From assembly GCA_903836515.1 (NCBI GenBank), contig CAILQW010000061.1:1-61339 (forward strand): a stretch of 61,339 nt of DNA, written 5' to 3'. The translations under genes and the position numbers were made by a program. Shown here one piece after another: positions 2-21,633 of the stretch. The stretch comes from Candidatus Omnitrophota bacterium. GTDB taxonomy: Bacteria > Omnitrophota > Gorgyraeia > Zapsychrales > Fredricksoniimonadaceae. Numbering within the stretch: the first letter of the stretch is position 1; each line of letters starts with the position of its first letter. Below the pieces are notes generated by a model, which saw only the letters and a list, made by a program, of their open reading frames with translations, was not told where the DNA came from and did no database searches.

Positions 2-3000
2 TGGGAAGACCTGAACCTGATGAACAGCCTGGGGATCAACTGGAACGACCTGCAGACGATGACGAATGCGGGGGTCAACTGGGGCGACATGCAGGCGATG
101 AGCGGCGCGGGTGTCAACTGGCAGAATATTGAAGTGATGAGCGACACGGGCGTGAACTGGAGCGATATTCAGACGATGGCCGCCGCGGGCGTCAACTGGT
201 ATGACATGCAGATGATGACATCGACCGGGATCAACTGGTCGGATATGTCGGTGTACACCAACCAGGCGATCAACTGGTCGGATCTTCAGACCTTGACCGA
301 ACAGGGCGTGAACTGGATGGATATGTCGGTGTTCAGCAACCAGGGGATCAACTGGTCGGATATCCAGGTGTTGAGCCAGCAGGGTGTCAACTGGTCGGAT
401 GTTGATGTATTGGCGAAGACAGGGGTCAATTGGTCGGATATCCAGGCGATGAGCGGCGCGGGCGTCAATTGGCAAAATATCGGGGTCATGAGCGATGCCG
501 GGATCAACTGGTCGGATATGGATGTCCTGGCACAAACGGGGATCAATTGGTCGGATGTGGGCATATTGAGCACAACGGGCATCAACTGGTCGGATATGTC
601 AGTCTTCAGCCACCAGGGCGTGAACTGGTCGGATCTTCAGGTCATGACCGAGCAGGGTGTGAACTGGTCGGATATCGATGTGCTGGCCAAGGCCGGGATC
701 AACTGGTCGGATATGGAGGTGCTGAGCACCATCGGTTTAAACTGGGGCGATATGGCGGCGATGACCTCTTCGGCGGTTAACTGGAGCGATCTGCAGGTCA
801 TGAGCGATGTGGGTGTCAACTGGCAGGATGTCGAGGCCATGAGCGCGGCCGGAGTCAATTGGGATGATCTGGGCCATATGGCCGCCACAGGCATCAATTG
901 GTCGGACATGCAAGTGCTTAGCGAACAGGGTGTGAATTGGACGGATATGTCGGTATTCAGTAACCAGGGGATCAACTGGGCGGACATCCAGGTGCTGAGT
1001 CAGCAGGGCGTGAACTGGTCCGATATCGATGTGCTGGCCAAGGCCGGGATCAATTGGTCCGATATGGATGTGTTGAGTACGGCGGGGCTCAACTGGAGCG
1101 ATATGACCGTGATGTCTTCTTCCGGGTTGAACTGGAATGACATGCAGGTCATGAGTTCTTCGGGTGTCAATTGGGAAGATTTGAATCACATGAGTACCGT
1201 GGGCGTCAACTGGGAAGATTTGAACCTGATGAACAGCCTGGGCGTTAATTGGAACGATCTTGAGTCCATGACCAATGCCGGCATCAATTGGCATGACATG
1301 CAGGCGATGACCTCCACCGGGGTTAACTGGTCCGATATGTCGGTGTACACCAACCAGGCGATCAACTGGGCGGATCTTCAGGCCTTGACCGGGCAGGGCG
1401 TGAACTGGATGGATATGTCGGTCTTCAGCAACCAGGGGATCAACTGGTCGGATATCCAGGTGCTGAGTCAGCAGGGCGTGAACTGGTCCGATATCGATGT
1501 GCTGGCCAAGACGGGGATCAACTGGTCGGATATTCAGGTGTTAAGCCAGCAGGGCGTGAACTGGTCCGATATCGATGTCTTGGCCAAGACAGGGATCAAT
1601 TGGTCGGATATGGGTGTTTTGAGTGCGGCCGGGGTGAACTGGAGCGACATGCAGGCGATGAGCGGTGCGGGGGTGAACTGGCAGAATATCGAGGTGATGA
1701 GCGATGCCGGGATCAACTGGTCCGATATCGATACGATGACTACGGCGGGCGTCAATTGGTCCGACCTTCAGACGATGAGCATGACCGGTGTCAACTGGGT
1801 TGACATGTCGGTGTTCAGCAACCAGGGGATCAACTGGTCCGATGTTGAGGTGTTGAGCCAGCAGGGCGTGAATTGGTCAGACCTGGATGTATGGACGAAG
1901 ACCGGCATCAACTGGTCCGATATCCAGGTCATGAGTGCGCAGGGCGTGAACTGGTCGGATATGGATGTGCTGGCCAAGACCGGGATCAACTGGTCGGATA
2001 TCCAGGCGTTGAGCCAGCAGGGGATCAACTGGTCGGATTTCCAGGTGATGACCGGGCAAGGTGTGAACTGGACGGATATGTCGGTGTACACCAACCAGGG
2101 GATCAACTGGTCCGACATCCAGGTGTTAAGTCAGCAGGGTGTGAATTGGTCCGATATCGACGTTCTGGCCAAGACCGGGATCAACTGGTCCAACCTTGAA
2201 ACCATGACGGATGCGGGGGTCAATTGGTCGGATCTTGATATGCTGACAACCCGTGGCGTCAACTGGGACGATATCACGGTCATGAGTGCTTCCGGTGTGA
2301 ACTGGGAAGATTTGAATCATATGAGCACGGTGGGTGTGAACTGGGAAGACCTGAATTTGATGAACAGCCTGGGGGTAAACTGGAACGACCTGGAGGCTAT
2401 GACCAATGCCGGTGTCAACTGGGGCGACATGCAGGCCATGAGCAGCACGGGTGTCAACTGGCAGAATATCGAGGTGATGAGTGATGCGGGCGTCAACTGG
2501 GGCGACCTGCAGGCTCTGACCGCCGCCGGGGTGAACTGGTCCGACCTGCAGGCGATGACGGCGTCCGGGGTGAACTGGACCGATATGTCGGTCTACACCA
2601 ATCAGGCGATCAACTGGTCGGATCTAGAGGTGTTGAGCCAGCAGGGCGTGAACTGGTCGGATGTTCAGGTGTTGAGTCAGCAGGGCATCAACTGGTCGGA
2701 TATTGATGTGCTGGCCAAGACCGGGGTCAACTGGACGGATATTGATGTGCTGGCCAAGACCGGGATCAACTGGTCGGATATGGGTGTCCTGAGTGCGGCC
2801 GGAGTCAACTGGAGTGATATGCAGGCGATGACCCTGGCGGGGATCAACTGGAGCGACATGCAGGCGTTGAGCGCTTCGGGCGTCAACTGGTCCGATTTGA
2901 ATATCATGACAGATGCCGGGATCAACTGGTCTGACTGGAGTACCATGACCAATATCGGGGTCAACTGGTCGGATCTTCAGGCAATGGCCGGCATCGGCGT

Positions 3001-5686
3001 GAACTGGTCCGATCTTGAGGTGATGAGTGTTAATGGCGTGAACTGGTTTGACCTGGCGGCGATGACCACCAATGTCTTGAATTGGGCAGACCTTTCCACC
3101 ATGACACAGGCTTCTGTCAATTGGCAGGATATGGCGGTTTTCAGTGCATCCGGTGTCAACTGGGCAGACCTTTCCATGATGGCCACGGCGGGTATCAATT
3201 GGTCTGACATGCAGGCGATGAGCGACATGGCGATCAACTGGGCTGATTGGCAGGTTTTGTCGGGACAGGGTGTCAACTGGAGCGATATCGGGGTCATGTC
3301 TGCGGCCGGCATGAACTGGTCCGGCATGGCCTACATGACGACTACGGGTGTGAACTGGGATGATCTGGCGGGTCTTTCCAGGGCAGGGGCGAACTGGCAG
3401 GATTTTGAGGTGATGTCGGACATCGGGGTCAACTGGGACAGCTTCAGCGGCATGACCAATGCCGCTGTTAACTGGGATGATTTTGTGACCCTGACCCGAC
3501 TGGGGATCAACTGGCAGGATATCGATGCCATGTCGAATGCGCAGGTCAACTGGCAGGACATGAACCAGATGACGACCCGCGGCGTCAACTGGGATGACCT
3601 GACGGTCATGACCGATGCGGGTGTCAACTGGAACGATATTGTTACGATGTCGGCGGCAGGTGTCAATTGGGACGATATGACAGCCATGAGCGCGATGGGG
3701 GTCAACTGGTCCGACATGCAGGCCATGACCGATGCGGGTGTCAATTGGGATGATGTTTCCACGCTTACTAACCAGGGTGTCAACTGGTCGGATATCCAGG
3801 TGTTGAGCCAGCAGGGTATCAATTGGTCGGATATCGATGTGCTGGCCAAGACCGGCATTAACTGGTCGGATATCCAGGTGCTCAGCCAGGAAGGTGTCAA
3901 TTGGTCGGATATCGGGGTTTTAGCGGGGACCGGAATCAATTGGTCGGATATTGCGGCCATGGCAGGTACAGGTGTCAACTGGACGGACCTCGAGGCTTTG
4001 AGCGCGGCCGGGATCAACTGGTCGGACATGTCGGTTTTTACGGGCCAGGGGATCAATTGGGCGGATATGGAGACATTGAGTACCCAGGGGATCAACTGGT
4101 CTGATATCCAGGTATTGAGCGCCCAGGGCATCAATTGGTCGGATATCGATGTGCTGGCCAAGACGGGTATCAACTGGTCGGATATCCAGGCCTTCAGCCA
4201 GGAGGGGATCAACTGGTCTGACCTGCAGTTTATGACGGATGCGGGGGTCAACTGGTCGGACATCCAGGTCATGAGCCAGGGCGGGGTCAATTGGGATGAT
4301 CTGCAGCAGATGACCGTGACAGGCTTAAACTGGTCCGATCTCCAGGTGATGACTGATCTTGGCATCAACTGGGGCAATATGGAAGAAATGCTGGGCACGG
4401 GCGTCAACTGGTCTTCGCTGGCCGGGATGTCCCTGACAAGCGTCAACTGGGATGATATGGCCGCCATGACCACCGACGGCGTGAACTGGATGAGCCTTGC
4501 ACAAATGTCAGAGGCCGGGGTGAACTGGGCCAGCGTTGACGTGATGACAGCTTCCGGTGTGAACTGGGATGATGTGGCCCTGCTGACAACCACAGGGGTT
4601 AATTGGGACAGCCTGCAGTTTATGAGCAATGCGGGTGTGAACTGGGATGATATCCAGGCTATGTCCTCCACCGCTGTCAACTGGGACGGTTTGCAGACCG
4701 TCAGTGAAACAGGTGTCAACTGGAGCGATCTGGGGGTCATGACCAACCAGGGGATGAACTGGGAGAATCTTACGGTGATGACGGCCTCCGGCATGAATTG
4801 GGAAGATCTCCAGGCCTTGACCACGACGGGCGTGAACTGGGACAATTTCAGCGCCATGTCCAACGACGGCATCAACTGGTCGGCGTTGGGAGTTATGACG
4901 GAGAGTGCTGTCAATTGGGATGATCTGAGCGTTCTGACCGGCGCCGGGATGAACTGGGCCAATATGAATGATATGACAACGGTGGGGGTCAACTGGGCTA
5001 ATTTGAGCGAGCTGACGGTCGCGGCTGTGAATTGGGACGAGTTCGGGGCCATGTCGGCGGCAGGGATCAACTGGATCAATATCAGCGAGATGTCCGAGAA
5101 TGCGGTCAACTGGAGCGGTGTGGCGGATATGGCGGCGGCCGGGATCAACTGGGGAGAGATCGGTCATCTTTCGGAATCCAATGTCAACTGGTCCGATCTG
5201 GGGGCCATGACCGATGCTGGCATCAACTGGTATGATATCGGTGTGATGAGTGACACCGGTGTCAACTGGGAAGGGATATCGGTCTTCAGTGCCGCCACGA
5301 TCAACTGGGAAGGGATCGGGGATATGAGTAACGGCGGCGTCAACTGGGCCAATATCGGAGAGCTTTCTGCCGCCGGGATCAACTGGGATGAGATTGATCA
5401 TCTTTCCCGTCAGGGCCTTAACTGGGACGAGATCGGTGAGTTGACGACCAGCGGCATTAACTGGAATGACATCGCCCAGATGACGGCGAGCGGTATTAAT
5501 TGGGATGATGTCACGGCCATGACAACGAGCACGGTCAACTGGTCCGATTTCTCCAGCATGACGGGATCCAGCGTCAATTGGGATGAGCTTGCCGAGTCGA
5601 CCACCAGCAATGTGAATTGGGCGGACATGTCCAGCATGACCCACCAGAACATTGATTGGAGCGAGATGAGCTATTTCTCGAAGAAC
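2..5686 (+). repeat. Coding tandem repeat, 39-nt period, 145 full units
   Basis: Trp codons fall at 41+39n from 41 to 5657 with no indel (hand-checked at 41, 1211, 2342, 5657). Confidence 0.95.
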
Positions 5687-6376
5687 GCCCGCACGCTTAT
5701 CAGCGAGATGGATGCAGTGTACACCAGGATCGGGTCTGTCACGGATACCAGTTCTGCTAATACCCTTTTTGGCAGGATACAGAAAATACTGGATGCGGTG
5801 GGGTCAAGCGACCTGTCGACGATCATAGCGACGCTCGGGAAAGCCACGGATGCGGGCACGGCCGGAACGATCTTCGGGGACATCAACAATATCCAGTCGT
5901 CCCTCGGTACAAGCACCACGTCTTCCACCGTATTCTCCCAGATGGATACCATCCAGGGCTATGCCAAGAAAGGCAAAGACAGTGCGGATGCGGCGCTCGG
6001 TGTGGCCAAGAATATCCAGGAAGACCTGGGTGTCAACGGCGAAACGCCCAGTGCTTATCAGAAACTGAAAGATCTCGAAACGTATATCAAGGACATCCAG
6101 GCGTCGGCCCTGGCCATGGGCAACAAGCAGGATGTCACCGGTGATCTTGCCCAGCAGATGATCGACATGGTCAAGAATTTCATCAACCGCCAGGCCGAGC
6201 TGGCCGGTATCGCCACCAGCGGCCTTGCGGTGGAAGGCCTCTCCGGGAAAAATGCGGGCGATATGGATAAGGTCAACGAGAAGCTTGAAGAGATCGATGC
6301 CAAGATCCTGGCCCTGCGTGAAGCCATGAAGCTTGATGATGTGGTGGTGAAGACCTGGTTTGAAAGCGAGGAATAA
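2..6376 (+). CDS. Giant 13-aa tandem-repeat protein (G-[VI]-N-W-x-D), 5'-truncated by the window edge; non-repetitive C-terminal ~240 aa
   Basis: Frame is open from base 2 (WEDLNLMNSLG...), so the true start lies upstream. 145 units, then a helical/coiled-coil tail ending VVKTWFESEE. Next gene starts 3 nt after the stop. Confidence 0.9.
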   Translation, partial: WEDLNLMNSLGINWNDLQTMTNAGVNWGDMQAMSGAGVNWQNIEVMSDTGVNWSDIQTMAAAGVNWYDMQMMTSTGINWSDMSVYTNQAINWSDLQTLTEQGVNWMDMSVFSNQGINWSDIQVLSQQGVNWSDVDVLAKTGVNWSDIQAMSGAGVNWQNIGVMSDAGINWSDMDVLAQTGINWSDVGILSTTGINWSDMSVFSHQGVNWSDLQVMTEQGVNWSDIDVLAKAGINWSDMEVLSTIGLNWGDMAAMTSSAVNWSDLQVMSDVGVNWQDVEAMSAAGVNWDDLGHMAATGINWSDMQVLSEQGVNWTDMSVFSNQGINWADIQVLSQQGVNWSDIDVLAKAGINWSDMDVLSTAGLNWSDMTVMSSSGLNWNDMQVMSSSGVNWEDLNHMSTVGVNWEDLNLMNSLGVNWNDLESMTNAGINWHDMQAMTSTGVNWSDMSVYTNQAINWADLQALTGQGVNWMDMSVFSNQGINWSDIQVLSQQGVNWSDIDVLAKTGINWSDIQVLSQQGVNWSDIDVLAKTGINWSDMGVLSAAGVNWSDMQAMSGAGVNWQNIEVMSDAGINWSDIDTMTTAGVNWSDLQTMSMTGVNWVDMSVFSNQGINWSDVEVLSQQGVNWSDLDVWTKTGINWSDIQVMSAQGVNWSDMDVLAKTGINWSDIQALSQQGINWSDFQVMTGQGVNWTDMSVYTNQGINWSDIQVLSQQGVNWSDIDVLAKTGINWSNLETMTDAGVNWSDLDMLTTRGVNWDDITVMSASGVNWEDLNHMSTVGVNWEDLNLMNSLGVNWNDLEAMTNAGVNWGDMQAMSSTGVNWQNIEVMSDAGVNWGDLQALTAAGVNWSDLQAMTASGVNWTDMSVYTNQAINWSDLEVLSQQGVNWSDVQVLSQQGINWSDIDVLAKTGVNWTDIDVLAKTGINWSDMGVLSAAGVNWSDMQAMTLAGINWSDMQALSASGVNWSDLNIMTDAGINWSDWSTMTNIGVNWSDLQAMAGIGVNWSDLEVMSVNGVNWFDLAAMTTNVLNWADLSTMTQASVNWQDMAVFSASGVNWADLSMMATAGINWSDMQAMSDMAINWADWQVLSGQGVNWSDIGVMSAAGMNWSGMAYMTTTGVNWDDLAGLSRAGANWQDFEVMSDIGVNWDSFSGMTNAAVNWDDFVTLTRLGINWQDIDAMSNAQVNWQDMNQMTTRGVNWDDLTVMTDAGVNWNDIVTMSAAGVNWDDMTAMSAMGVNWSDMQAMTDAGVNWDDVSTLTNQGVNWSDIQVLSQQGINWSDIDVLAKTGINWSDIQVLSQEGVNWSDIGVLAGTGINWSDIAAMAGTGVNWTDLEALSAAGINWSDMSVFTGQGINWADMETLSTQGINWSDIQVLSAQGINWSDIDVLAKTGINWSDIQAFSQEGINWSDLQFMTDAGVNWSDIQVMSQGGVNWDDLQQMTVTGLNWSDLQVMTDLGINWGNMEEMLGTGVNWSSLAGMSLTSVNWDDMAAMTTDGVNWMSLAQMSEAGVNWASVDVMTASGVNWDDVALLTTTGVNWDSLQFMSNAGVNWDDIQAMSSTAVNWDGLQTVSETGVNWSDLGVMTNQGMNWENLTVMTASGMNWEDLQALTTTGVNWDNFSAMSNDGINWSALGVMTESAVNWDDLSVLTGAGMNWANMNDMTTVGVNWANLSELTVAAVNWDEFGAMSAAGINWINISEMSENAVNWSGVADMAAAGINWGEIGHLSESNVNWSDLGAMTDAGINWYDIGVMSDTGVNWEGISVFSAATINWEGIGDMSNGGVNWANIGELSAAGINWDEIDHLSRQGLNWDEIGELTTSGINWNDIAQMTASGINWDDVTAMTTSTVNWSDFSSMTGSSVNWDELAESTTSNVNWADMSSMTHQNIDWSEMSYFSKNARTLISEMDAVYTRIGSVTDTSSANTLFGRIQKILDAVGSSDLSTIIATLGKATDAGTAGTIFGDINNIQSSLGTSTTSSTVFSQMDTIQGYAKKGKDSADAALGVAKNIQEDLGVNGETPSAYQKLKDLETYIKDIQASALAMGNKQDVTGDLAQQMIDMVKNFINRQAELAGIATSGLAVEGLSGKNAGDMDKVNEKLEEIDAKILALREAMKLDDVVVKTWFESEE

Positions 6377-6379
6377 CCA

Positions 6380-7711
6380 ATGGGGCTGCGTACAGGGGTG
6401 TCCGGCAGGGGGTGGGGTATTCTTGCCGCTTCCTTTTGGGGGCTCGTCCTCCTTGTCCCTTTGGCGTATGCTGACATTGTGATCAATGTCCTGGCAGTCA
6501 ATGGGACGGACCAGCCTCAGAAAAAGAATATCGAATTCAGCCTCCCGGGAGAACTGAAGCCCGAGGATGTTGTTGATAATGCCGGGCTTCAGCTTGATTA
6601 TAATGTCAAGGATGCCGGGTATTTCCTGCACGGCGATGTTGATCTTCAGTCCAAGGAGACAAAGACCTTCCGGGTCCATGTGCGTGATGTCTGGCGTATC
6701 GGCGATACCGCAGTGGGCGCGCTGCGCGATGACATCGAGCGCGGGTACAGGGAAATGGGCGGCGAGCGCGATGCCGCCAATGCCGGGAAGCTCCGTCAGA
6801 AACTGATCGACAAGCTTGATTATATCCTTGCAGAACAGGACAGGTCTGCCGGCAACATCGATGCGCGCATCGATGCCTACCGCAATCATACCCAGACCAT
6901 TGCAGGGATCAGGGCCAAGGCCAAGCTCATCGACTACTGGCGCACCGATGCCGCCATTGCAGATCCGGCCAAGGTCATTAATTTTCTGGTCCAGGTCGAG
7001 AATCCGGGCGAGAAGACCAAGAAGGTCAAGCAGCAGCACTATCTTCCCGCCGAAGTCAGGCCCGAGTATATCACCGACCGCCAGGGTTTCGAGATCCGTT
7101 TCGATGAGAAAAAAGGACAGCCTTTCCTTTTCAGGGAGGATGATTTTGCTCCCGGTGAAAAACGGAAGGTTTCTATCGCCATCCAGGATGTCTGGTTTGT
7201 CCCGGAGAACGAGCTTCAATATGTCCGGGGGCACGCCAAGTACGCCATGGGTGACCTTCAGAAATCAAAGTACATTGATACCGCCAAGGCGCTTTTTAAT
7301 GATATCATCAATAATCTCGATCTGATCGATGCGCTTCAAAAGACGCTCCAGCCGGACATTGAACAGCATATCGGCGCCTACCGTCTTAATGCGGTCAGGT
7401 TCGAGCAGGCGAAGAAGGATCTTGACGCGCTGGAGAAGCTTTTGTCCAGGTTCCGTGCGGACAGGGAAAAAAGCAAGATCAAGAACGTGATGCAGAAGAT
7501 ACAGACCCTGAAGTCCCTGGCCAAGGTTTCCGAAGCGATCCTCGACAAGAAACCGACCGTGAACGCGGCCTGGAAACTGATCGGGTCCGTGATGCTCTTC
7601 CTCGCATTTTTCACGACCATTTATTTCATCACATGGTTTTTCCGCTCTTCCCGGGAGAAAAAACAGGAAGAGATCAAGTACGGCCAGAAGAAAGATGAAG
7701 CGCGCGGTTAA
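6380..7711 (+). CDS. Exported protein with signal peptide, two tandem ~167-aa domains and a C-terminal TM anchor; function unknown
   Basis: N-terminal hydrophobic stretch ending LAYA. Motifs LPxExxPE, DVW and AYR each recur 501 nt apart. TM LIGSVMLFLAFFTTIYFITWFF followed by a basic tail. Confidence 0.85.
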   Translation: MGLRTGVSGRGWGILAASFWGLVLLVPLAYADIVINVLAVNGTDQPQKKNIEFSLPGELKPEDVVDNAGLQLDYNVKDAGYFLHGDVDLQSKETKTFRVHVRDVWRIGDTAVGALRDDIERGYREMGGERDAANAGKLRQKLIDKLDYILAEQDRSAGNIDARIDAYRNHTQTIAGIRAKAKLIDYWRTDAAIADPAKVINFLVQVENPGEKTKKVKQQHYLPAEVRPEYITDRQGFEIRFDEKKGQPFLFREDDFAPGEKRKVSIAIQDVWFVPENELQYVRGHAKYAMGDLQKSKYIDTAKALFNDIINNLDLIDALQKTLQPDIEQHIGAYRLNAVRFEQAKKDLDALEKLLSRFRADREKSKIKNVMQKIQTLKSLAKVSEAILDKKPTVNAAWKLIGSVMLFLAFFTTIYFITWFFRSSREKKQEEIKYGQKKDEARG

Positions 7712-7729
7712 CGTCCAGGCGGGAATATT

Positions 7730-9214: not shown

Positions 9215-9228
9215 GGAAAGGGGCCGGC

Positions 9229-10046: not shown

Positions 10047-10060
10047 CCAAGGAGTTTAAG

Positions 10061-10816: not shown

Positions 10817-10849
10817 CCATCCCTCCGCGCGGGGCGGGTAAGGTATTTT

Positions 10850-13175
<2,326 letters not shown>

Positions 13176-13177
13176 CC

Positions 13178-14899
13178 ATGCTGAAGCCCGCTGTCAACAA
13201 GACCGTCGGCGAGATCCTTGTCAAGCGTGCTCTTCTTGACGAGGACGGGATGAAGCAGGCCTGTGCGCAGGCCCGTCACGAGAATCTGCGCCTCACCGAC
13301 TACCTGGTCCGTGCCGGTATCCTTAAGGCCCGGGACATCCTTGATGCCCTGTGCGCCGGGATCCCCTGTGATGCTGTGGACTTAAAAGCGCTCGCCATCG
13401 ATAAAAGTGTCATTGAGCGCGTCCCCGTCAAGTTTGCTTCGTATTACCGGTTCATGCCCTTGGCCATCGAAGGGCAGAAGCTGACCCTGGCGGCTTCCGA
13501 GCCGCTCGATATCCATACCCAGGACGATATCCGCGCTCATCTGGGCCTCGAACCCAAGTGCGTTTTGGCCAGCGCCTGGGATGTGGAGGAAGCCCTGAAG
13601 AAATATTACGGGTTCGCTTCGGACACCATCGACAGGATATTGACCCGTGATCCCAAACGTTTCCGCGAACAATCCGGTGATCATGCGGCGATCGAGGATA
13701 TCGAGCGCCAGAGCGAGGACCCGACGGTCACGAAGCTCGTCAATGAGATCATCCTGGAAGCCTACCAGAAGCGCGCCACCGATATTCATATCGAGCCTTA
13801 CCGCAACAGGGTCCGTTTCCGTTACCGCATCGACGGGGTCCTGATCGATGCCAATCTGCCGCCGGAAGCGCGGCATTTTCTGGCCGCCATTCTTTCGCGC
13901 ATCAAGATCATGGCTGAACTGAGCATCACCGAAAAACGCAAGCCGCTCGACGGGAGCGCGGTGGTGCGCGTGGGCGGGCAGGCTTTGGACTTGAGGGTGT
14001 CGACCATTCCTGCCCTGCACGGGGAAAGCATGGTTATCCGCCTTCTGCCGACCACATCGGAGCTCCTTAACCTTGAGAAGCTCGGCTTTAACGCGGATAA
14101 TGCCCGGCGTTTCCGCGATCTTGTCCGGCGTCCCCACGGGGTGGTCTTTGTGACCGGGCCTACGGGCAGCGGCAAGACAACGACCCTTTACGCGTGCCTG
14201 AACGAGATCAACGACCCTTCCCGCAAGATCATCACCATCGAGGATCCCGTAGAGTACGAGATGGACGGCATCACGCAGATCCAGGTGAACGCGGATGTCA
14301 ATTTCAGCTTTGCCGACGGACTTCGCAGCGTCCTGCGTCATGACCCTGATATCCTGATGGTGGGTGAGGTGCGCGACACGGAGACCGCCAACATCGCCAT
14401 CCGTACGGCCCTCACCGGGCATCTTGTTTTTTCATCCCTTCATACCAACGATGCGGCCAGCGCCGTGACGCGCCTGGTGGACATGGGAGTTGAACCCTAC
14501 CTGGTCGCCTCGAGTGTCCAGGCGTTTGTGGCCCAGCGGCTCGTCCGGGTCATTTGCCCGCACTGCCGGGAAGAGGATGCCTCATCCCTGACGGATATCC
14601 GCCAGGAGATCGCCCGCAGCCTTGGCGATGTCGAGGCCTCCCGGGTTGTCATTTTTCGGGGTCGTGGCTGTGATGCCTGCAATAATACGGGGTATTACGG
14701 GCGGACAGCCATTTACGAGATATTGGAACTTGACGAGCAGATCCGGGCCGTTATCCTGGACAAGCCACGGGCCGAGGAGATCCGGCGTATCGCCATTGAG
14801 CGCGGTATGCGCACCCTGCGCCAGGACGGATGGAAGAATGTGGCCAACGGGGTGACCACTCCGGCGGAAGTCATGAACGTGACCATGAAAGAGGATTGA
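13178..14899 (+). CDS. gspE: T2SS/T4P assembly ATPase (GspE/PilB family)
   Basis: GPTGSGKTTT, TIEDPVEY, LRHDPDILMVGEVRD, TGHLVFSSLHTND, CPHC...CDAC zinc motif. Confidence 0.95.
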   Translation: MLKPAVNKTVGEILVKRALLDEDGMKQACAQARHENLRLTDYLVRAGILKARDILDALCAGIPCDAVDLKALAIDKSVIERVPVKFASYYRFMPLAIEGQKLTLAASEPLDIHTQDDIRAHLGLEPKCVLASAWDVEEALKKYYGFASDTIDRILTRDPKRFREQSGDHAAIEDIERQSEDPTVTKLVNEIILEAYQKRATDIHIEPYRNRVRFRYRIDGVLIDANLPPEARHFLAAILSRIKIMAELSITEKRKPLDGSAVVRVGGQALDLRVSTIPALHGESMVIRLLPTTSELLNLEKLGFNADNARRFRDLVRRPHGVVFVTGPTGSGKTTTLYACLNEINDPSRKIITIEDPVEYEMDGITQIQVNADVNFSFADGLRSVLRHDPDILMVGEVRDTETANIAIRTALTGHLVFSSLHTNDAASAVTRLVDMGVEPYLVASSVQAFVAQRLVRVICPHCREEDASSLTDIRQEIARSLGDVEASRVVIFRGRGCDACNNTGYYGRTAIYEILELDEQIRAVILDKPRAEEIRRIAIERGMRTLRQDGWKNVANGVTTPAEVMNVTMKED

Positions 14900-14904
14900 T
14901 CCCG

Positions 14905-16119
14905 GTGCCGGTATTTATTTATAAAGCCAAGAAAGAAGATGCCGTGACCGTGACGGGGGAAGTCACGGCGCGCGATGCCGACGAGGCCCTGGACATGGTG
15001 GTCCGCCAGGGCTTGCTGCCGGTCAGTGTCGATGAAAAGGGGGCCAATGCCCTTCCCGGTGCTGTCCGGGGGCAGGGGGTCAAGCCGCGCCAGATCCATG
15101 CCTTTACCCGTCAGCTGGGGAGCCTGCTCAGGTCGGGCGTTCCTCTGCTGAGGGCGCTTGAGGTCCTCGCACGCCAGATGCATGCGCCCCGTGACGCGCA
15201 TTTCGCGGGCATTGTCCGTGATGTGGCGCTCAATCTGCGCAACGGCCGTTCATTTTCAGCCTGTCTCGCCGAGCATCCCCGGGTGTTCGCGGATATTTAT
15301 GTCACCATGGTCCGCGCCGGTGAGGAAAGCGGGCGGTTGAAAGAAGTTCTCGAAAGCCTGGCCGTCTACGAACGCAAGCAGGATGAAATCGCCCGCCAGG
15401 TACGCGGCGCCCTGGTGTATCCGGCGTTCATGCTGATGGTGGGGGTGTGTACCGTTTTCTTTATCCTGAGTTTTGTGATGCCCAAGATCGCTGTTCTTTT
15501 TGAAGGTATGCGTGTCGCCCTGCCGTGGCCGACCCGGTTTGTCATGGGCTTAAGCCGGGCTGTCCGCGTGGCGTGGCCCGTATTGCTGGGCCTGGCCATG
15601 GCCGCGGCCGCGGGCGCGCGTTTTATGGCCCTGGCCCCGCAGATCCGCCGCAGGTTCATGGCGTTTGTGGCCGCGCTGCCCTTCATCCGTGAATTCACGG
15701 TCAAGACGGATATGGAACGTTTTGCCCGCACCCTGGCCCTGCTTTTGGGGAGCGGTGTCCCGATCCTCAAGGCCCTGGAGACGGCGGTGCCATCCCTGGC
15801 GTATGAGCCGTTGCGGCGGGAGCTTTCCCTTTGCCAGGAGCGTGTGGCGGGCGGCGCATCCCTGGGGGCGTGCCTGCGCGAATCGCCGCATATTCCCGAC
15901 ATCATGGTGCAGATCATCGCGATTGGCGAGGAAACCGGGGAACTGGCCGGGTCGCTTAAGGACGTTGCCGATACGTATGAACAGGAGATCGCCGAAACCA
16001 CCCGTTCGATGACGACGCTCCTGGAACCGCTCCTGATCCTGGCTGTGGGGCTTGTGGTGGGATTTATTGTCCTGGCGATGCTGCTGCCCATCTTCCGGAT
16101 GGACATGTTCGCTTCCTGA
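14905..16119 (+). CDS. gspF: T2SS/T4P inner-membrane platform protein (GspF/PilC)
   Basis: GTG start after GAGGA gives MPVFIYKAK. FTRQLGSLLRSGVPLLRAL, MVRAGEESG, IAIGEETGEL, three TM segments. Confidence 0.93.
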   Translation: MPVFIYKAKKEDAVTVTGEVTARDADEALDMVVRQGLLPVSVDEKGANALPGAVRGQGVKPRQIHAFTRQLGSLLRSGVPLLRALEVLARQMHAPRDAHFAGIVRDVALNLRNGRSFSACLAEHPRVFADIYVTMVRAGEESGRLKEVLESLAVYERKQDEIARQVRGALVYPAFMLMVGVCTVFFILSFVMPKIAVLFEGMRVALPWPTRFVMGLSRAVRVAWPVLLGLAMAAAAGARFMALAPQIRRRFMAFVAALPFIREFTVKTDMERFARTLALLLGSGVPILKALETAVPSLAYEPLRRELSLCQERVAGGASLGACLRESPHIPDIMVQIIAIGEETGELAGSLKDVADTYEQEIAETTRSMTTLLEPLLILAVGLVVGFIVLAMLLPIFRMDMFAS

Positions 16120-16217
16120 TTTATTATTTTTACACCCCGAATTTTTTCAGTTGTGGTATTTTTATTACATCAGCAGGGCGATGCCTTTGCTTGGGATAAC
16201 CATCAGGGAGGTTCGAT

Positions 16218-16643
16218 ATGATTGACGGCACAACCATGTTTCGGCGCCGGGGGTTCACGCTCATCGAGATCATGCTTGTGGTCATCATCATCGGGGCGCT
16301 GGCCGCGATGATCGTCCCGCGCCTGGCGGGGCGTTCCGAACAGGCCAAGGCCGCGGTCGCTAAAGCGGACCTGATGAACATCGCCACGGCGCTTAAGCTT
16401 TATGAGCTGGATAACGGGGGATTTCCTGCTACGGCCCAGGGGCTTGCTGCCTTGCGCGAACGACCTTCCGGTGCGCCCGTTCCCCGGAACTGGAACGGCC
16501 CTTACCTTGAAAAAGACCCTGTGGATCCGTGGGGGAATGCGTATATTTATGCCGCACCGGGAACGCACCGCCCGGATTATGACCTTTCATCCAGGGGCAA
16601 GGATGTGGCTTCAGCGGATGATGATGTTGTCAACTGGCAGTAG
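16218..16643 (+). CDS. gspG: Major pseudopilin GspG
   Basis: RBS GGAGG. G|FTLIEIMLVVIIIG prepilin motif, LKLYELDNGGFP, WNGPYL...DPWG. Confidence 0.93.
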   Translation: MIDGTTMFRRRGFTLIEIMLVVIIIGALAAMIVPRLAGRSEQAKAAVAKADLMNIATALKLYELDNGGFPATAQGLAALRERPSGAPVPRNWNGPYLEKDPVDPWGNAYIYAAPGTHRPDYDLSSRGKDVASADDDVVNWQ

Positions 16644-17064
16644 CCGTTCCCGGCGCCGGCAGGGCATCACCTTCATTGAAGTGATGCTGGCGGTGGTCAT
16701 CCTGTCGGGAGGGCTTGTGGCGCTTTACCGGTGTTTCTTTTCCGCCGTGGATTATCTGGACCGCCTGTCCACGCGGCTGTATGCGTTCAATCTCCTTGAA
16801 GGGCGTATGGCCGCGGTCGAGAAAGAGTTTCGTTCCCCGAAGGATTTTGATATCGGTCTGCTGGATGAAGAAGTCGTGATCAACAACCGTCCCGTGGCGT
16901 TCCATTATAATGTTAACCTGAAACCTGTGGGCACCCTCCTGTCGGTCTTTGAACTGGACATGGACCTTTCGTGGCAGGAGCGCGGGCGCCGTGTCACGCT
17001 TTCGCGCACGGCCTATGTTTCAGGTGTCACCGCCATATCCCCGGCGGAAGGGAAGGGAACCTGA
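16621..17064 (+). CDS. Minor pseudopilin, GspI-like
   Basis: RRQG|ITFIEVMLAVVIL prepilin motif. Start ambiguous among ATGs at 16618, 16621 and 16624. Confidence 0.78.
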   Translation: MMLSTGSSRSRRRQGITFIEVMLAVVILSGGLVALYRCFFSAVDYLDRLSTRLYAFNLLEGRMAAVEKEFRSPKDFDIGLLDEEVVINNRPVAFHYNVNLKPVGTLLSVFELDMDLSWQERGRRVTLSRTAYVSGVTAISPAEGKGT

Positions 17065-17651
17065 TGCGCCGGCGCGCCTTCACCTTTATCGAGATCATGC
17101 TGGTAGCGGCTCTTTTTGCCATTCTGTCGACCGCCATTTTTACGTGTCTGCTTAACGGGATCAGGCTCTCGGACCGGGCCCGCCAGATGATGTCCGGAGA
17201 GGATTCGCTTATTTTCTTCGACCGCATGGCCTCGGACCTGCGCAACACGTTTCATTTTGCCAACATCGATCTAGCCGGTGAAGAGGGGCGCATGGCATTC
17301 CCGTGCGTTGTCTGGACGCCGGCCGACCGTGTGAGCATGCGTGCCCCTGAAGGCGTTGTCGACCAGATCGGCCGTGTGGCGTATGATTATGATCCTGTGC
17401 GTGAAGCTGTGGTCCGCCGCCAGGCCAATTATTCCCAGGCGATGGCCGGGGGGTGGGGGGCTGACACGGTGCTGGTCAAGGGGGTCAAGGGGCTGCGCTT
17501 CCGTTATTTTCACGGCGTATCCGGCGAAGCGTCCACGCACCTGGAACCCACGGACGAGATACCTTCCGGTGTTGAGGTCGAACTCCATGTGATCCAGGCG
17601 GGAGAAGAACGGGTGCTCAAACGTTATATCGCTATTCCGGCGGGGGTGTAA
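17064..17651 (+). CDS. Minor pseudopilin, GspJ-like
   Basis: TGATG overlap with the upstream gene. MRRRA|FTFIEIMLVAAL, RMASDLRN. Confidence 0.8.
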   Translation: MRRRAFTFIEIMLVAALFAILSTAIFTCLLNGIRLSDRARQMMSGEDSLIFFDRMASDLRNTFHFANIDLAGEEGRMAFPCVVWTPADRVSMRAPEGVVDQIGRVAYDYDPVREAVVRRQANYSQAMAGGWGADTVLVKGVKGLRFRYFHGVSGEASTHLEPTDEIPSGVEVELHVIQAGEERVLKRYIAIPAGV

Positions 17652-18671
17652 ATGGCGGTCGTGAGGCGGCATGGTTTTATCCTGATCACCGCGTTATGGA
17701 CGCTGACCTTCTTGTCGGTTCTGGCGGTGATGCTGTTGGCCGGGGTCCGCCAGAGGATTGTTCTTTTTCAGCGCCTTGAGGACCGTGCCCGTGTGCAGGC
17801 TGCGGCAGAAGCCGGGGTCAAGAAGGCGGAGGCCATGACGCTTGATGCCCTGGAGGATCCCTCCGTGGCGGCCGTTGTGGTCAAACAGCGCCTGCACAAC
17901 AATCCTGCAGAATTCGCCGGCATGGATGTCGGAGGGGTTGCCGTCGAGGTTGTCCCTGATGCGCTGGATCCGGGCACGGGGGCCGTGGGCACGGCGTGGG
18001 GGGTGGCGGACGAGCAGTCAAAGATCAACTTAAACACGTCTTCCCGCGAGATCCTGGCCCGCCTGGTGACCGAGGCTCTCGGCTGGAACGGGGTCGAGGC
18101 ACGCGCCCTGGCTGATGCCATCGCCGACTGGCGGGATTACGGCCAGCATAGCACGGAGGGTTTTTTCAACGATGATTATTACAAAAGCCTCGAATTTCCT
18201 TATCCGATGAAAGATGCGGTGTTCGCACGGCCCGACGAGCTGCTGCTGGTGAAAGGGGTCAATGCAAAGATCTACGAAACATTACTGCCCTTCATCACCG
18301 TCTACGGGGACGGGCATGTCAATATCAATACAGCCTCGCGCCAGGCCCTTGTTGCCCTGGGACTTGATGTCCCGCTTGCCCAGAAGCTTGTGCGCTTCCG
18401 CCGGGGCGCAGACAACCTTGAGGCGACCGCCGATGATCATGTTTTTGCGCGGACATTCGATGTTGCCGCCGATATTGCCGGGAGTGTCAAGCTTGACCCG
18501 TCAGAGGTCCGCCAGATCGACGACCTTAACGCCCGCGACCTGTTGACGTCCGAGTCGGGTATTTATGCGTTTATCAGCCGTGTGCCCGCATCCGCCGGCG
18601 GGTACAAGCGGTCCATCGCGTGTGTTTTCAGTGTTTTTGAGAGCCGTGTCCTCTACTGGTATGAAAAATAA
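17652..18671 (+). CDS. gspK: Minor pseudopilin GspK
   Basis: RRHG|FILITALW (no E5), DEQSKINLNT, LLLVKGV, NINTAS. Confidence 0.88.
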   Translation: MAVVRRHGFILITALWTLTFLSVLAVMLLAGVRQRIVLFQRLEDRARVQAAAEAGVKKAEAMTLDALEDPSVAAVVVKQRLHNNPAEFAGMDVGGVAVEVVPDALDPGTGAVGTAWGVADEQSKINLNTSSREILARLVTEALGWNGVEARALADAIADWRDYGQHSTEGFFNDDYYKSLEFPYPMKDAVFARPDELLLVKGVNAKIYETLLPFITVYGDGHVNINTASRQALVALGLDVPLAQKLVRFRRGADNLEATADDHVFARTFDVAADIAGSVKLDPSEVRQIDDLNARDLLTSESGIYAFISRVPASAGGYKRSIACVFSVFESRVLYWYEK

Positions 18672-18682
18672 TCAATTTTATG

Positions 18683-18712
18683 TTGAAGCCCTTTAAAGAC
18701 ATAGTCTATAAT
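18683..18712 (+). promoter_or_regulatory. Putative sigma70 promoter internal to the T2SS cluster
   Basis: TTGAAG-18-TATAAT in the only AT-rich gap between gspK and the GspL-like gene. Confidence 0.55.
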
Positions 18713-18735
18713 GGTGCCATTAAAGATCGGATCTT

Positions 18736-20226
18736 ATGACGCTCAAATACCGCAAATACATAACAATCGCCATCACCCCGGCAAGCGTGAAGGTGGCTCA
18801 GGTCACCGCCGGAGGTGTGGTTGAGAAGCTTTCGCGCCGTGACATTTCAGGCGGTGCCGCGGATGCGGCCCTGCGCGATGCCCTGGCAGGGTTCCAGACC
18901 CGCAAGGCCGGCATCCTGTGCGTGATCCCGGGCGAAGTGGCCACCACCAAGTTCCTTGATGTCCCTTCGGTTGACAATGACGAAATAGATTCCATCCTCG
19001 GCCTGCAAGCGTCACGGCATACGCCCTTCACCAAGGATGAGATCCTTACCGGTTATGTCAAGATCCGTTCACCGCGTCCGAATTTCACAAGCGTCCTGTT
19101 GATCGTGGTCAAGCGACAGATCGTCAAGGATAAGATCGCCCTCATGCGCGCGGCAGGGCTTGATGTTGCCTCCGTGATATTTGTGCCCGAAGGTGTGGCC
19201 CGTTTTTATGCCCAGGCGCTTAACCTGCGCAAGGGGGGTTCCGCGGTCATCCTTGATATCGATGCGCAGAATACCAATTTCATCATCCTGGCCGAGGGGG
19301 CTGCGGTCATGGCGCGCAGCATTCCTGTTGGGATCGACCAGGTCAAGGCTGATCCGTCGGTTATTGCCCGGATCGTGGATGAAGCTAAAGCGTCGCTGGA
19401 AGCTTTTGAGCAGGAAGGCGGCACCCGTCCGACACGGCTCGTCGTGACATCGAATCATCCTTCCCTGGCTGGCCTGGAAGCGGCGCTGGCCGGGCCGTTG
19501 GCCATGAAACCGGAGTGCCTGCCGTATCAAAATTTTGTCAAGGGCTTTGCCGGGCTGAAGCAGCAGATTTCCAGGGATTTTATCGACGATTCTGCCCTGG
19601 ATGTCATTGCTGCGGGTGTGACGGCAGCGCGATGCGGGGCGGAACTCCTGCCCCAGGAGCTCAAAGACCAGCGCATGGTCGCGGAAAAGGGCGGGGAGAC
19701 CATGAAAGCGGGGATCTTTGTCCTGATGGCTTTTCTTTTTATCGGGGCGGCGCTCCTCAGCCGGGTTTATTTCGAGGATCTTTTCTTCAGGCAGAACCTG
19801 GTTGAAAAATACGCGGGCCAGAAAAAAGAGGTCGGGCTTCTCGAGAAGATGATCGTCAAGACGGGGCTCCTGCGCGATTACCTTCAGGCCAGGCAGATGC
19901 CCCTGGAGGCCATTACGGAACTTTACAGGATCATCCCCCAGGAGATATATCTTTCGGGTGTCACCATGGACGACAAGGGCGAGGTGTCCATCCAGGGCAT
20001 TTCCGAATCCATGTCGCGTGTTTTTGCCTTGGTCACGGCGCTGGAGGATTCGCCTCTTTTCGAGAATGTCAAGACCCGCTCCACCACGGCGAAAAAAGAA
20101 CGCGGCAAGGATGTGGCGGCCTTTGAGATCGTCCTGAAGCTTTCCGCGCCATCTGCCGCGGCTGCCGGTGTCCAAGACCTTAAAACCGCAGGGCAGGGCA
20201 ACCAAGGAGCAGGCCTTGATCAGTAA
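18736..20226 (+). CDS. GspL-like protein (PilM-PilN fusion architecture)
   Basis: Actin-like N-terminus (ITIAITPASVKVAQ; ILDIDAQNTN), single TM, PilN-like periplasmic part (IPQEIYLSGVT...VSIQG). Confidence 0.82.
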   Translation: MTLKYRKYITIAITPASVKVAQVTAGGVVEKLSRRDISGGAADAALRDALAGFQTRKAGILCVIPGEVATTKFLDVPSVDNDEIDSILGLQASRHTPFTKDEILTGYVKIRSPRPNFTSVLLIVVKRQIVKDKIALMRAAGLDVASVIFVPEGVARFYAQALNLRKGGSAVILDIDAQNTNFIILAEGAAVMARSIPVGIDQVKADPSVIARIVDEAKASLEAFEQEGGTRPTRLVVTSNHPSLAGLEAALAGPLAMKPECLPYQNFVKGFAGLKQQISRDFIDDSALDVIAAGVTAARCGAELLPQELKDQRMVAEKGGETMKAGIFVLMAFLFIGAALLSRVYFEDLFFRQNLVEKYAGQKKEVGLLEKMIVKTGLLRDYLQARQMPLEAITELYRIIPQEIYLSGVTMDDKGEVSIQGISESMSRVFALVTALEDSPLFENVKTRSTTAKKERGKDVAAFEIVLKLSAPSAAAAGVQDLKTAGQGNQGAGLDQ

Positions 20227-20842
20227 ATTTATTTCCGGGCTTTCCGCCAATGAGCGCAAGATTCTTATCGTGGCGTCCTTGTTCGTCCTGTTTGCGCTTT
20301 TCGACAGGCTTCTGGTCGGGCCATCGTTTAACCGCATGAAAGAGCTTGACGAGAGTATTGCCAAGGAAGAGGATACGATCCGCCATAACCTGAGGTTCCT
20401 CGATTATAAAAAACGCATTGTGGGTGAAGCGGCCGCCTTCCGTGATTTTTATACGCAGGAGGTCCGCAGCGAGGACGAGGTCATCGCCGATTTCCTGAAG
20501 AAAATGGAACTGCTGGCATCGCAGGCTCAGGTGACCCTCTCGAAGATATCTCCGGCGGGGCAGGACGCCCAGAAAGATTATGTCAAGTATTTCGTGACCA
20601 TGGATTGTTCCGGGAAACTGGAGAGTATCACCAGCCTTGTTTACGCGATCAACAATGCGAAGGCATTGATCAAGGTCGAGAAAATGAGCCTTTCCAGCAA
20701 TGCCCGCAGCGCGGATACGGTCCAGGCGAGCCTTACGGTATCAAAGATGATCGTGGGTGCGGATCCTTCTGTCGAGGCCAAGGATCTTGTCCGGGTGAAG
20801 GAGTCCGACAAGCCCGAGGCCAAGACGGATACAGGTAAATGA
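20216..20842 (+). CDS. GspM/PilO-like protein
   Basis: TTG start after AAGGAG. LSANERKILI-TM-coiled coil-ferredoxin-like segment. Confidence 0.75.
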   Translation: MISKFISGLSANERKILIVASLFVLFALFDRLLVGPSFNRMKELDESIAKEEDTIRHNLRFLDYKKRIVGEAAAFRDFYTQEVRSEDEVIADFLKKMELLASQAQVTLSKISPAGQDAQKDYVKYFVTMDCSGKLESITSLVYAINNAKALIKVEKMSLSSNARSADTVQASLTVSKMIVGADPSVEAKDLVRVKESDKPEAKTDTGK

Positions 20843-21633
20843 TCCCCTTCTGGCACAGGACGCTGGTCCCGTGCATGCTTATTTCTCTTCTATCCGCAGC
20901 GCAGGTTTCTGCCGCCCCCGTGAGCCGGGAGCAGTTGTTCCAGCTCGCCACCATTGCGGCCGGAGACCATCAGTTTGAACGTGCCATTGAACTTTTCCAG
21001 AAGATCATCGAAGTGGATCCCAAGTTTGCCCCGGCTTATAACGGGATCGGGCTTGTCCATCAGTCGGATGAAAATGGTTCGCCGCTGGAAGCGCTGCGTT
21101 ATTTCAGGCTTGCCGTTGACATTGACCCTGAATATGCCGAAGGCTGGAACAATCTGGGAAGGGCTTATTATACCCAGGCCCGTTTTGTGAACGCGGAACA
21201 GGCGTTCTTGACATCCTTGCGCCTTAAGCCCGGGCAGACAGATATCGAGTTCGCCCTGGCGTGGGACTATCTTTTGGGGCAGTCGCGCCCCGATGAGGCG
21301 ATTACCTATTTTGAGAAAGTCAGGGCCCGCCAGGATAATCCCATGATCTATTACGGGATCGGGCTGGCGAGCCTCCTGCAGGGCAACCGCATGAGGGTCA
21401 TGGAGGCTGTCACGCAGCTGCGCCATCATCAGAGGGAAGAACAGGCCCTGGGGCTTGAGAAAATGTTGAAGGAGAATGTCCTGATCAATTCAAAGCCGGG
21501 GACTCCGCTGGTGACAGGTGCGCCGCAGGCGGAATCATTATTCGATCATCAACTCAGGGAACTTAACGCGTCGGGGTATACGGTTCCCGGCAAAGAAGGC
21601 ATCAAGGTCAGATTAAAGGGGCCCTTGCTGTGA
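20839..21633 (+). CDS. Exported TPR protein
   Basis: Signal peptide. TPR motifs (DPKFAPAYNGIG, DPEYAEGWNNLGRAY). Confidence 0.85.
   Translation: MIPFWHRTLVPCMLISLLSAAQVSAAPVSREQLFQLATIAAGDHQFERAIELFQKIIEVDPKFAPAYNGIGLVHQSDENGSPLEALRYFRLAVDIDPEYAEGWNNLGRAYYTQARFVNAEQAFLTSLRLKPGQTDIEFALAWDYLLGQSRPDEAITYFEKVRARQDNPMIYYGIGLASLLQGNRMRVMEAVTQLRHHQREEQALGLEKMLKENVLINSKPGTPLVTGAPQAESLFDHQLRELNASGYTVPGKEGIKVRLKGPLL

Follow-up and report, generated by a model that had tools for sequence, protein, structure and literature searches.

Positions 2 to 21633 of contig CAILQW010000061.1 from a Candidatus Omnitrophota bacterium carry one copy of what we tentatively read, with somewhat less than even confidence, as an envelope machine specific to the Omnitrophota: an ATP-driven mechanical actuator acting on a surface fibre that is anchored in the inner membrane. 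The whole stretch of DNA analysed, here called the window, comprises 61,339 nucleotides (nt). Four obligately linked modules would make up the machine, namely a giant repeat protein, a membrane-anchored partner protein, an F-type ATPase without subunit a, and a machine resembling type II secretion systems (T2SS) and type IV pili (T4P). The gene arrangement is far beyond chance; all related loci examined whose length allows the order to be seen have the same one. An earlier sequence-only reading of this DNA had called the cluster an undescribed machine; that description cannot stand, as loci of this class were published by Seymour et al. in 2023 (PMC10066038), and its accompanying suspicion that such clusters had been seen before was correct. 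The same reading knew of no functional characterisation, and our literature search likewise found no paper characterising the system. The link between the ATPase and the pilus was published in 2023; the anatomy of the locus is, as far as we know, described here for the first time.

The gene map of the window was drawn from the list of open reading frames (ORFs) and their translations, and then from Pfam and NCBIfam scans. Every gene from 2 to 21633 lies on the + strand, so the ORF map and the family scans bear out the claim that a single strand is used from the window edge to the gene of a TPR protein. The run does not end there: on the same strand it continues through genes for an epimerase, a GT2 glycosyltransferase and a 565-aa membrane protein to position 25115. 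The three junctions singled out in the sequence-only reading match exactly (giant protein to partner, 3 nt; partner to alpha, 18 nt; beta to gspE, 2 nt), the other junctions of the run range from -4 to 98 nt, and no intergenic terminator-like hairpin was found in the cluster.

About 130 related Omnitrophota loci were compared with the window. One genome per GTDB species was scanned with an alignment of nine partner sequences, which yielded 44 loci, and the loci were annotated with hidden Markov models built from the window and the first relatives. The window's order (type A) runs partner, alpha, epsilon, c, c', b-delta, gamma, beta, GspE, GspF and, at some distance, GspG; it was found in every species-representative locus of sufficient length, and in all 32 distinct complete clusters GspE came next. 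To test the converse, metagenomes were scanned with the divergent gamma subunit as the seed, which gave 80 loci. The partner was present in 41 of the 41 loci having sequence upstream of alpha (in one of them as a 43-aa tail only, recognised by eye), and wherever there was room a long ORF preceded the partner and GspE followed beta. The end of the giant gene lies -98 to +100 nt from the start of the partner gene in nearly all loci, and -44 to +61 nt in the first fifty (L001-L050), the exceptions being two loci of a third operon type (L052 and L053, 244 nt) and the frameshifted L049.

Two further arrangements were found. In type B, a short partner is followed by epsilon, c, b-delta, alpha, gamma, beta and GspE, which is near the canonical atpEFHAGD order with the partner at the place of atpB. 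Type C reads partner, alpha, alpha', epsilon, c, b-delta, gamma, beta and a GspE with a PilZ domain, with two tandem alpha-like genes before epsilon (L050, 7163-10164; L052 and L053, 10001-18390). The c' gene is absent from type B and type C clusters. Partner identity to the window falls to about 31% within the standard arrangement, and the partners of types B and C are more diverged. In all examined loci the giant, the partner, the ATPase and GspE/GspF are contiguous, and the synteny in relatives on which the sequence-only reading had staked its case is therefore present.

The partner gene (6380-7711, +) encodes 443 aa without a Pfam match, and its AlphaFold2 (AF2) model reached a predicted local distance difference test (pLDDT) score of 80. 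A cleavable signal peptide with a conserved A|D cleavage-type site is predicted, and is followed in the model by two copies of a beta-sandwich with a three-helix bundle (one copy in short forms), a helix of about 60 residues, a single C-terminal transmembrane (TM) helix with invariant Trp, Phe and Arg, and a cytoplasmic tail of about 25 residues. On this model the partner is a predicted type I inner-membrane protein with its ectodomain toward the periplasm; that the envelope is diderm is indicated by the LpxB gene that the window carries. The family is large, with 86 word-index matches and, in an exhaustive profile search, 976 clusters at 50% identity. Named relatives come nearly all from Omnitrophota metagenome-assembled genomes, and the few other labels are probably mis-assigned. 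No relatives were found in Pfam, among PDB sequences or among PDB folds, and the NCBIfam scan gave nothing relevant: the best fold match of the model in the PDB had E = 0.075, with TM-scores near 0.1-0.2 and nothing significant, and profile searches of PDB sequences with the partner and with the C-terminus of the giant met only a chance FliL TM match and designed coiled coils.

The fusion proteins of this family provide independent evidence of a physical link between giant and partner. In many of the 976 clusters the partner module forms the C-terminus of a protein of 1000-3700 aa. One such giant-partner fusion (P0188, 3365 aa) is directly followed by epsilon, c, b-delta, alpha, gamma, beta and GspE, that is, by a type B ATPase, and a second was found in locus L034. 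Since the partner is the C-terminus of the giant in some lineages, we infer that it is the giant's inner-membrane anchor here too, and that giant and partner are therefore one functional chain. Another partner subfamily continues past the TM helix into a cytoplasmic GGDEF domain; the partners of the type C loci L052 and L053 are of this kind (P0127 and P0168), and GspE in those loci bears PilZ.

What remains of the giant gene in the window (2-6376, +) encodes the C-terminal 2124 aa, its N-terminus lying off the left edge. This part is built of about 140 tandem repeats of 13 aa, G-[VI]-N-W-[ST]-D, a period that corrects the sequence-only reading and is not longer; Trp makes up 7% of its residues, 73 of the 140 repeats bear an N-W-S/T sequon, and there is no TM segment. 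The protein is probably secreted, judging by its relatives: the full-length ones, among them those of L002 (868 aa) and L004 (2819 aa), begin with Sec-type signal peptides. The heads and repeat types of the giants vary, with NW repeats in type A and Ser/Thr-rich, immunoglobulin-like repeats in types B and C. In most loci the ORF upstream of the partner runs off the fetched DNA at more than 3300 aa, and gene calls reach 5949 and 6910 aa.

The conserved part of the giant is its non-repeat C-terminal domain (5681-6373, +), which has helical "TLFG" motifs and closes with DVVVKTWFESEE, a hydrophobic, strand-like motif at the very end of the protein. The last 330 aa, comprising the final repeats and this domain, match 36 of 37 related giants at 31-70% identity. 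The domain is kept where the rest of the giant differs, for example in the type C giant of L052, which is without NW repeats; in type B giants the analogous end is VVHV[IL]YQ. We read the domain as a putative docking site for the partner. Its AF2 model is all-helical and of low confidence (pLDDT 55), too poor for a fold search. For the repeats, AF2 gave low-confidence short helices only. Pfam Lysostaphin_N matches the giant strongly (210 bits; window 2-5650), which we judged to reflect a shared 13-residue periodicity and not homology. In two distant loci, a pair of genes with FGE-sulfatase domains stands between the TPR gene and the giant (L002, 4187-7382; L052, 491-3969) and is possibly a conserved accessory. 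The TPR gene of L002 has a secretin gene immediately upstream, and that of L052 is cut off by the end of the fetched DNA.

The ATPase cluster opens with F1 alpha (7730-9214, +), which matches Pfam ATP-synt_ab and ATP-synt_ab_C and passes the NCBIfam atpA cut-off (530 against 484 bits), and closes with the catalytic F1 beta (11733-13175, +), which passes that of atpD (530 against 463 bits). Against PDB sequences, beta reaches 400-454 bits with ordinary F1 of bacteria, mitochondria and chloroplasts and 329 bits with the beta subunit of the Mycoplasma mobile G1-ATPase; alpha behaves alike, and F1 chains overall score 360-485 bits. In conservation counts over 86-120 relatives, the Walker A motif of beta is kept in 83 of 86, its GERxREG motif in 86 of 86 and the Arg finger of alpha in 85 of 86. 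The alpha3-beta3-gamma-epsilon head is thus, as far as its residues tell, catalytically intact. Gamma (10850-11704, +; 284 aa) is divergent, with 90 bits for Pfam ATP-synt and 66 bits against an NCBIfam cut-off of 194. Epsilon (9229-9495, +; 88 aa) consists of the beta-sandwich domain only (Pfam ATP-synt_DE_N, residues 9-81) and is without the inhibitory C-terminal helices; ORF lengths in its family have a median of 100 aa and a maximum of 133 aa.

The membrane part begins with subunit c (9547-9768, +; 73 aa; Pfam ATP-synt_C), which has the RNP loop and the ring glutamate (FVEA); the loop is almost invariant and the glutamate is kept in 95 of 98 relatives. Next to it lies c' (9810-10046, +), a 78-aa two-helix hairpin and c paralogue that has no Pfam match and was aligned across 40 loci. 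As a correction to the sequence-only reading, the window's c' is without the ring glutamate and has Ile at that position, where roughly 70% of the aligned orthologues have Glu. Subunits c and c' together should form a membrane ring. The b-delta fusion (10061-10816, +) is the predicted peripheral stalk; it starts with a TM helix that bears no conserved charge, and this is followed by a coiled coil and an OSCP/delta domain (Pfam OSCP, residues 100-240); NCBIfam alt_F1F0_F0_B (TIGR03321) matches it over its full length (E = 1e-14), below the cut-off. Gamma, epsilon, c and b-delta all reach the Pfam gathering scores but stay well short of their NCBIfam equivalog cut-offs. Beta and c are closest to the window (median identity 77-78%), followed by alpha (73%), epsilon (60%), gamma (54%) and b-delta (48%); evolution within the module is fastest in c' and the partner (38-39%). 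As separate observations, L025 has two c genes in tandem, one without Glu (5905-6381), and in L049 many frameshifts interrupt the whole cluster (10016-19907), either through errors of long-read assembly or because the copy is decaying.

The claim that this ATPase has no subunit a was borne out at the locus. ATP-synt_A (PF00119) had no match among the scanned window genes, and no subunit a gene was present in any of the related loci, in any of the three arrangements. The largest unannotated gap inside any ATPase cluster of L001-L050 is 347 nt, and since no gap exceeds 350 nt there is no room for the subunit; in roughly 80 further loci, no extra ORF family breaks the gene order. A crude search of 1.54 Mb of related-locus DNA and the window found no R-[LF]-x-[GA]-N-x-x-[AG]-G, the pattern that we take to be the signature of subunit a. 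A hidden subunit-a function was considered for c', the TM helix of the partner and that of b-delta, and was rejected, there being no conserved membrane-embedded Arg or Lys in any of them. As no locus encodes subunit a, no ion path is encoded at the locus.

At the genome level, a 2026 preprint on 176 complete Omnitrophota genomes reports alpha and beta in 125, a recognisable gamma in 30, and V/A-ATPases as common. The supplements of that preprint and of Seymour et al. yielded two usable lists of KEGG orthologues as per-genome data on atpB; one list contains alpha, beta and V-type subunits and is without K02108, K02109, K02110, K02113 and K02115. A non-chemiosmotic role of the ATPase is favoured, because subunit a is conservedly lacking, the inhibitory domain of epsilon is lost, and the published genome surveys point the same way.

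The secretion or pilus module follows without a break. Its assembly ATPase, of GspE/PilB type (13178-14899, +; Pfam T2SSE, 430 bits), has an N-terminal MshEN domain, the type that binds cyclic di-GMP (c-di-GMP), and scores 579 bits with NCBIfam GspE and 561 bits with PilB, both just below the cut-offs; in many loci GspE bears MshEN and PilZ domains. The platform protein GspF/PilC (14830-16119, +) matches Pfam T2SSF twice and NCBIfam GspF with 335 bits, and its true start probably lies later than 14830. A major pseudopilin, GspG (16218-16643, +; Pfam T2SSG and N_methyl), is followed by an unclassified minor pseudopilin with the prepilin motif GITFIE and an uncertain start (about 16618-17064, +), a GspJ-like one (17061-17651, +; ORF map and Pfam) and a GspK-like one (17652-18671, +; Pfam T2SSK_1st and HHH_3). 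A PilM-PilN fusion with the architecture of GspL (18736-20226, +; Pfam PilM_2 and PilN, NCBIfam pilM), a protein like PilO and GspM (20168-20842, +; Pfam T2SSM_b and PilO) and a TPR protein of PilW/Tgl type (20839-21633, +; Pfam TPR; NCBIfam type_IV_pilW 57 bits and Tgl 38 bits, below the cut-offs) complete the module. Proteins of the PilW/Tgl type are lipoproteins of secretin assembly. In L002 and L004, genes for a secretin and a TPR protein precede the giant, and the window is cut off before that point. Family scans of 2-26153 found neither GspC nor the prepilin peptidase GspO, both of which may be encoded in another part of the genome, and no retraction ATPase (PilT) is present at the locus. 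Separately, two loci that differ in operon type have a Peptidase_MA_2 gene after gspF (L001, 17691-18437; L051, 19795-20131).

In the actuator reading, the T2SS-like pseudopilus and the secretin would thread the giant fibre across the outer membrane while the partner keeps its base at the inner membrane. The ATPase would be an ATP-burning rotary motor that runs in the hydrolysis direction only, because it has neither subunit a nor the inhibitory domain of epsilon. Motion of the c/c' ring against the stalk would be passed within the membrane to the TM helix of the partner and from there to the base of the fibre, and the fibre would be moved, tensioned or retracted, leading to attachment to, or movement on, host or prey cells. 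Where the partner bears a GGDEF domain, the anchor may also signal through c-di-GMP to the MshEN- or PilZ-bearing GspE. A bolder version, in which torque of the c/c' ring is delivered through the partner's TM helix to a secretin-threaded fibre that works as an ATP-driven rotary winch or drill, is one that we consider decidedly unlikely.

Several observations weigh against the actuator. With a single TM helix of b-delta as the only membrane stator, no obvious element resists the torque. No fusion of the partner or the giant to an ATPase subunit was found in the loci and clusters examined, and the partner-GGDEF fusions fit sensing or signalling at least as well as force transmission. The near-invariant glutamate of c, together with the fact that no other protein of the set is conserved as well as c, is expected if ion binding still matters, and the glutamate would be unnecessary for a purely mechanical ring. 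The absence of subunit a covers the loci and not the whole genome. Finally, co-transcription of the run, suggested in the sequence-only reading, is presumptive, and consensus promoter-like sites occur before gspG and gspL only.

The fixed position of the ATPase, with a very long secreted substrate on one side and a T2SS-like machine on the other, lends itself to a different explanation. Instead of moving the finished fibre, the ATPase would drive or monitor a step in the making of the giant or the pseudopilus (export, unfolding, threading or assembly), in the manner of the F1-related FliI/FliH/FliJ complex of type III export, with the c/c' ring as merely a membrane dock. Flagella and injectisomes are known to use F1 relatives for export, the FliI and SctN models were the next-best NCBIfam matches, and neither a retraction ATPase nor GspC is found at the locus. 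However, the full-length relatives of the giant bear an ordinary Sec signal peptide, GspE is already an assembly ATPase, a complete rotor, ring and stalk exceeds the needs of a dock, and nothing places the F1 at the export gate. We regard this explanation as unlikely.

It is improbable, in our judgement, that giant and partner act chiefly as a contact or mechanical sensor whose output is a c-di-GMP or conformational signal to GspE, the ATPase being an accessory with a role of another kind, for example to reset or regulate the sensor. The GGDEF domain is confined to one partner subfamily, and most partners, including that of the window with its short cytoplasmic tail, are without an output domain; moreover, a strictly conserved rotary ATPase of seven genes is not explained by sensing alone. 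The points that speak for a sensor are that same GGDEF subfamily, the MshEN and often PilZ domains of GspE, and the fast evolution of the partner and c', as seen in surface-facing parts.

Could the complex simply be an ordinary ion-translocating F1Fo that pumps ions or makes ATP, with subunit a encoded elsewhere in the genome, its linkage to the pilus reflecting co-regulation or a local energy supply? Alpha and beta pass the canonical atpA and atpD cut-offs and score like ordinary F1 against solved structures, and the ring glutamate and the RNP loop are almost invariant. Against this, the seven subunits occur together in about 130 loci and never with a, and we know of no operon pattern in which subunit a alone is split off. 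Epsilon is without its regulatory domain, and the scores of gamma, b-delta and epsilon are a long way short of the canonical cut-offs. In published surveys the clade counts as non-respiratory, and most complete genomes have no full F1Fo and do have a V/A-ATPase; the obligate partner and giant are left unexplained. We therefore hold this explanation to be quite improbable. That the adjacency is meaningless and the modules are independent can be set aside as highly improbable, given an order fully conserved down to about 31% partner identity, an association that survives three operon arrangements, the gene fusions, and the tiny or overlapping junctions.

Glycosylation genes adjoin the cluster at 21630-25115 (+) and 26767-30059 (-), comprising a UDP-GlcNAc 2-epimerase, two GT2 proteins, the 565-aa protein already mentioned (23418-25115, with at least 8 hydrophobic TM-like segments and no family hit) and a GT-C protein resembling STT3/PglB. 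In L004, too, an STT3-like gene stands beside the cluster (20373-21284, -). In the window's STT3-like protein the WWDxG motif was not found and models of oligosaccharyltransferases score very weakly, and N-glycosylation of the giant's N-W-S/T repeats by this neighbour is a lead only. At the end of the same-strand run lies a gene for a PIN-domain protein, probably the toxin of a toxin-antitoxin pair (25752-26153, +). Further on, a SNF2-family helicase with DUF3670 and an overlapping ORF of 268 aa without a family match (41622-45075, +) precede a second very large ORF of 2783 aa (45509-53860, +), which has a hydrophobic N-terminus, no repeats and no Pfam match and is unrelated in sequence to the first giant; downstream of it are a Porin_5 gene and genes for a solute-binding protein and an ABC permease.

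Rotary ATPases are textbook energy converters, and to our knowledge repurposing of F1 relatives has been shown or strongly supported only for the export ATPases of flagella and injectisomes and for two Mycoplasma systems. Here, a near-complete F1Fo with ring, stalk and head, and without a gene for the channel subunit in the examined loci, is tied to a giant fibre, an anchor and a secretion or pilus machine, in a system that spans a phylum of ultra-small, host-dependent bacteria. If ring motion is used mechanically, this would be a new route for force across the bacterial envelope and, plausibly, the core of how Omnitrophota attach to or prey on other cells. If the winch or drill were true, ultra-small bacteria would reel in or work on host or prey cells with the first F-type motor having a mechanical output outside the cell, and diderms would have a second kind of rotary surface organelle, independent of the flagellum. 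The parts list assembled here (partner family, docking domain, fusions and three operon types) makes a published note of co-location testable, and the existing Velamenicoccus enrichment culture suits structural biology and cryo-electron tomography on the system. These findings may interest those who study rotary motors and predatory or symbiotic nanobacteria, an interest tempered by the prior report.

Compared with canonical F1Fo, the complex shares homologues of alpha, beta, gamma, epsilon, c, b and delta, the catalytic residues and the carboxylate of the c-ring. It differs in lacking subunit a and atpI, in its extra c', in the fusion of b and delta and in an epsilon without the C-terminal domain, and the partner gene occupies the place that atpB has in the canonical operon. 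By sequence the head is F1, and the complex does not classify as an F1Fo ATP synthase because no subunit a is encoded at the locus. The N-ATPase (atpDCQRBEFAG) is the source of the long b model that matches the full length of b-delta; however, it has subunit a, AtpQ and AtpR and another gene order, as opposed to alpha-epsilon-c-c'-b-delta-gamma-beta here. AtpQ and AtpR were not found in the window, and the alt_F1F0 models for alpha, beta, gamma and b stayed far below their cut-offs.

The locus shares with T2SS and type IVa pili the proteins GspE, F, G, J and K, the GspL-like PilMN, GspM/PilO and the PilW/Tgl-like TPR protein, with a secretin in relatives, and departs from them in being without GspC, prepilin peptidase and PilT. 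We know of no T2SS or T4P operon with an embedded F-type ATPase. Giant proteins encoded beside T2SS- or T4P-like genes have been described in Omnitrophota and proposed to serve in prey adhesion (West-Roberts et al. 2023, 10.1101/2023.11.21.568195). Those genes exceed 25 kb, their products have many TM segments and SecA-like domains, and they follow an upstream Tad-like locus with no ATP synthase mentioned, whereas the giant of the window consists of repeats, has no TM segment and precedes the partner and the ATPase.

The closest functional parallels may lie in Mycoplasma. In M. mobile, the type 2 G1-ATPase, an intracellular F1-like ATPase, is thought to drive the giant surface proteins Gli349 and Gli521 from across the membrane; it forms dimeric F1-like units in cytoplasmic chains with PGK and without a c-ring, while the window keeps c. 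The Mycoplasma type 3 F1-like X0 ATPase works in the hydrolysis direction (Beven 2012, PMC3369863; Berlureau 2026, PMC12994834) and is required for the function of the surface MIB-MIP system (Berlureau 2026, PMC12994834). Both this type and the window have F1-derived alpha, beta, gamma and epsilon genetically tied to surface proteins. Type 2 and type 3 systems, which both serve surface machinery, each include a protein that combines a signal peptide and an ectodomain with C-terminal TM helices, two of them in the type 3 protein (PMC12994834); compared by description, this topology resembles that of the partner except for the partner's single TM helix. Type 3 systems are without c, b and delta, have a 12-TM protein and a small cytoplasmic protein, and occur in monoderms without a giant fibre or T2SS; the window's cluster encodes c, c' and b-delta and no 12-TM protein. 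The 565-aa multi-TM protein was considered as an analogue of the 12-TM X0 protein and rejected, as it has no family hit and the related loci end earlier. The window's alpha and beta do not reach the NCBIfam cut-offs of the Mycoplasma type 2 and 3 families, among them the gliding families MMOB1660 and MMOB1670 and the MSC_0618/0619 families (scores against cut-offs of 393/600, 404/850, 290/520 and 370/570 bits, the last two pairs being those of type 3). Judged by these tests, the complex falls outside the Mycoplasma type 2 and 3 and N-ATPase families. The interpretation given in the sequence-only reading is partly supported, in that a non-chemiosmotic role is favoured; alpha and beta are closer in sequence to ordinary F1 than to the gliding ATPase.

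The published loci closest to the window are those of Seymour et al. 2023 (PMC10066038), which belong to the same phylum and are of the same kind; the window, with the stop of beta 2 nt from gspE, is a member. In its searchable text and supplements, that study describes a "symbiotic", non-respiratory clade of F-ATPase alpha subunits beside type 4a pilus genes in all Omnitrophota classes, within 10 kb of type 4 pilus genes in 57 of 66 informative contigs and found in 56 of 111 Velamenicoccia species. The clade is separate from the respiratory one and groups with Mycoplasma F1-like ATPases in the alpha tree, and a Mycoplasma-like role in attachment to, or motility on, hosts was proposed. As far as the same text and supplements go, the study reports the phylogeny of alpha and beta and the co-location only, with no mention of the missing a, of c, c' and b-delta, of the partner family, of the upstream giant with its docking domain or of the fusions. 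A published description of the missing subunit a, c', the partner family, the obligate giant, the docking domain or the fusions was not found elsewhere in our search either. The pilus genes are named type 4a in that study; in the window we see a mixture of T2SS and T4P genes with GspK and without a retraction ATPase.

Taken as a whole, the system would, by analogy, work most like the F1-like systems of Mycoplasma. It is distinct from them in its c-type ring, its peripheral stalk, its diderm host, its T2SS-like machine and its giant fibre. The conserved C-terminal docking domain of the giant, the large partner family and the fusion proteins appear to be new.

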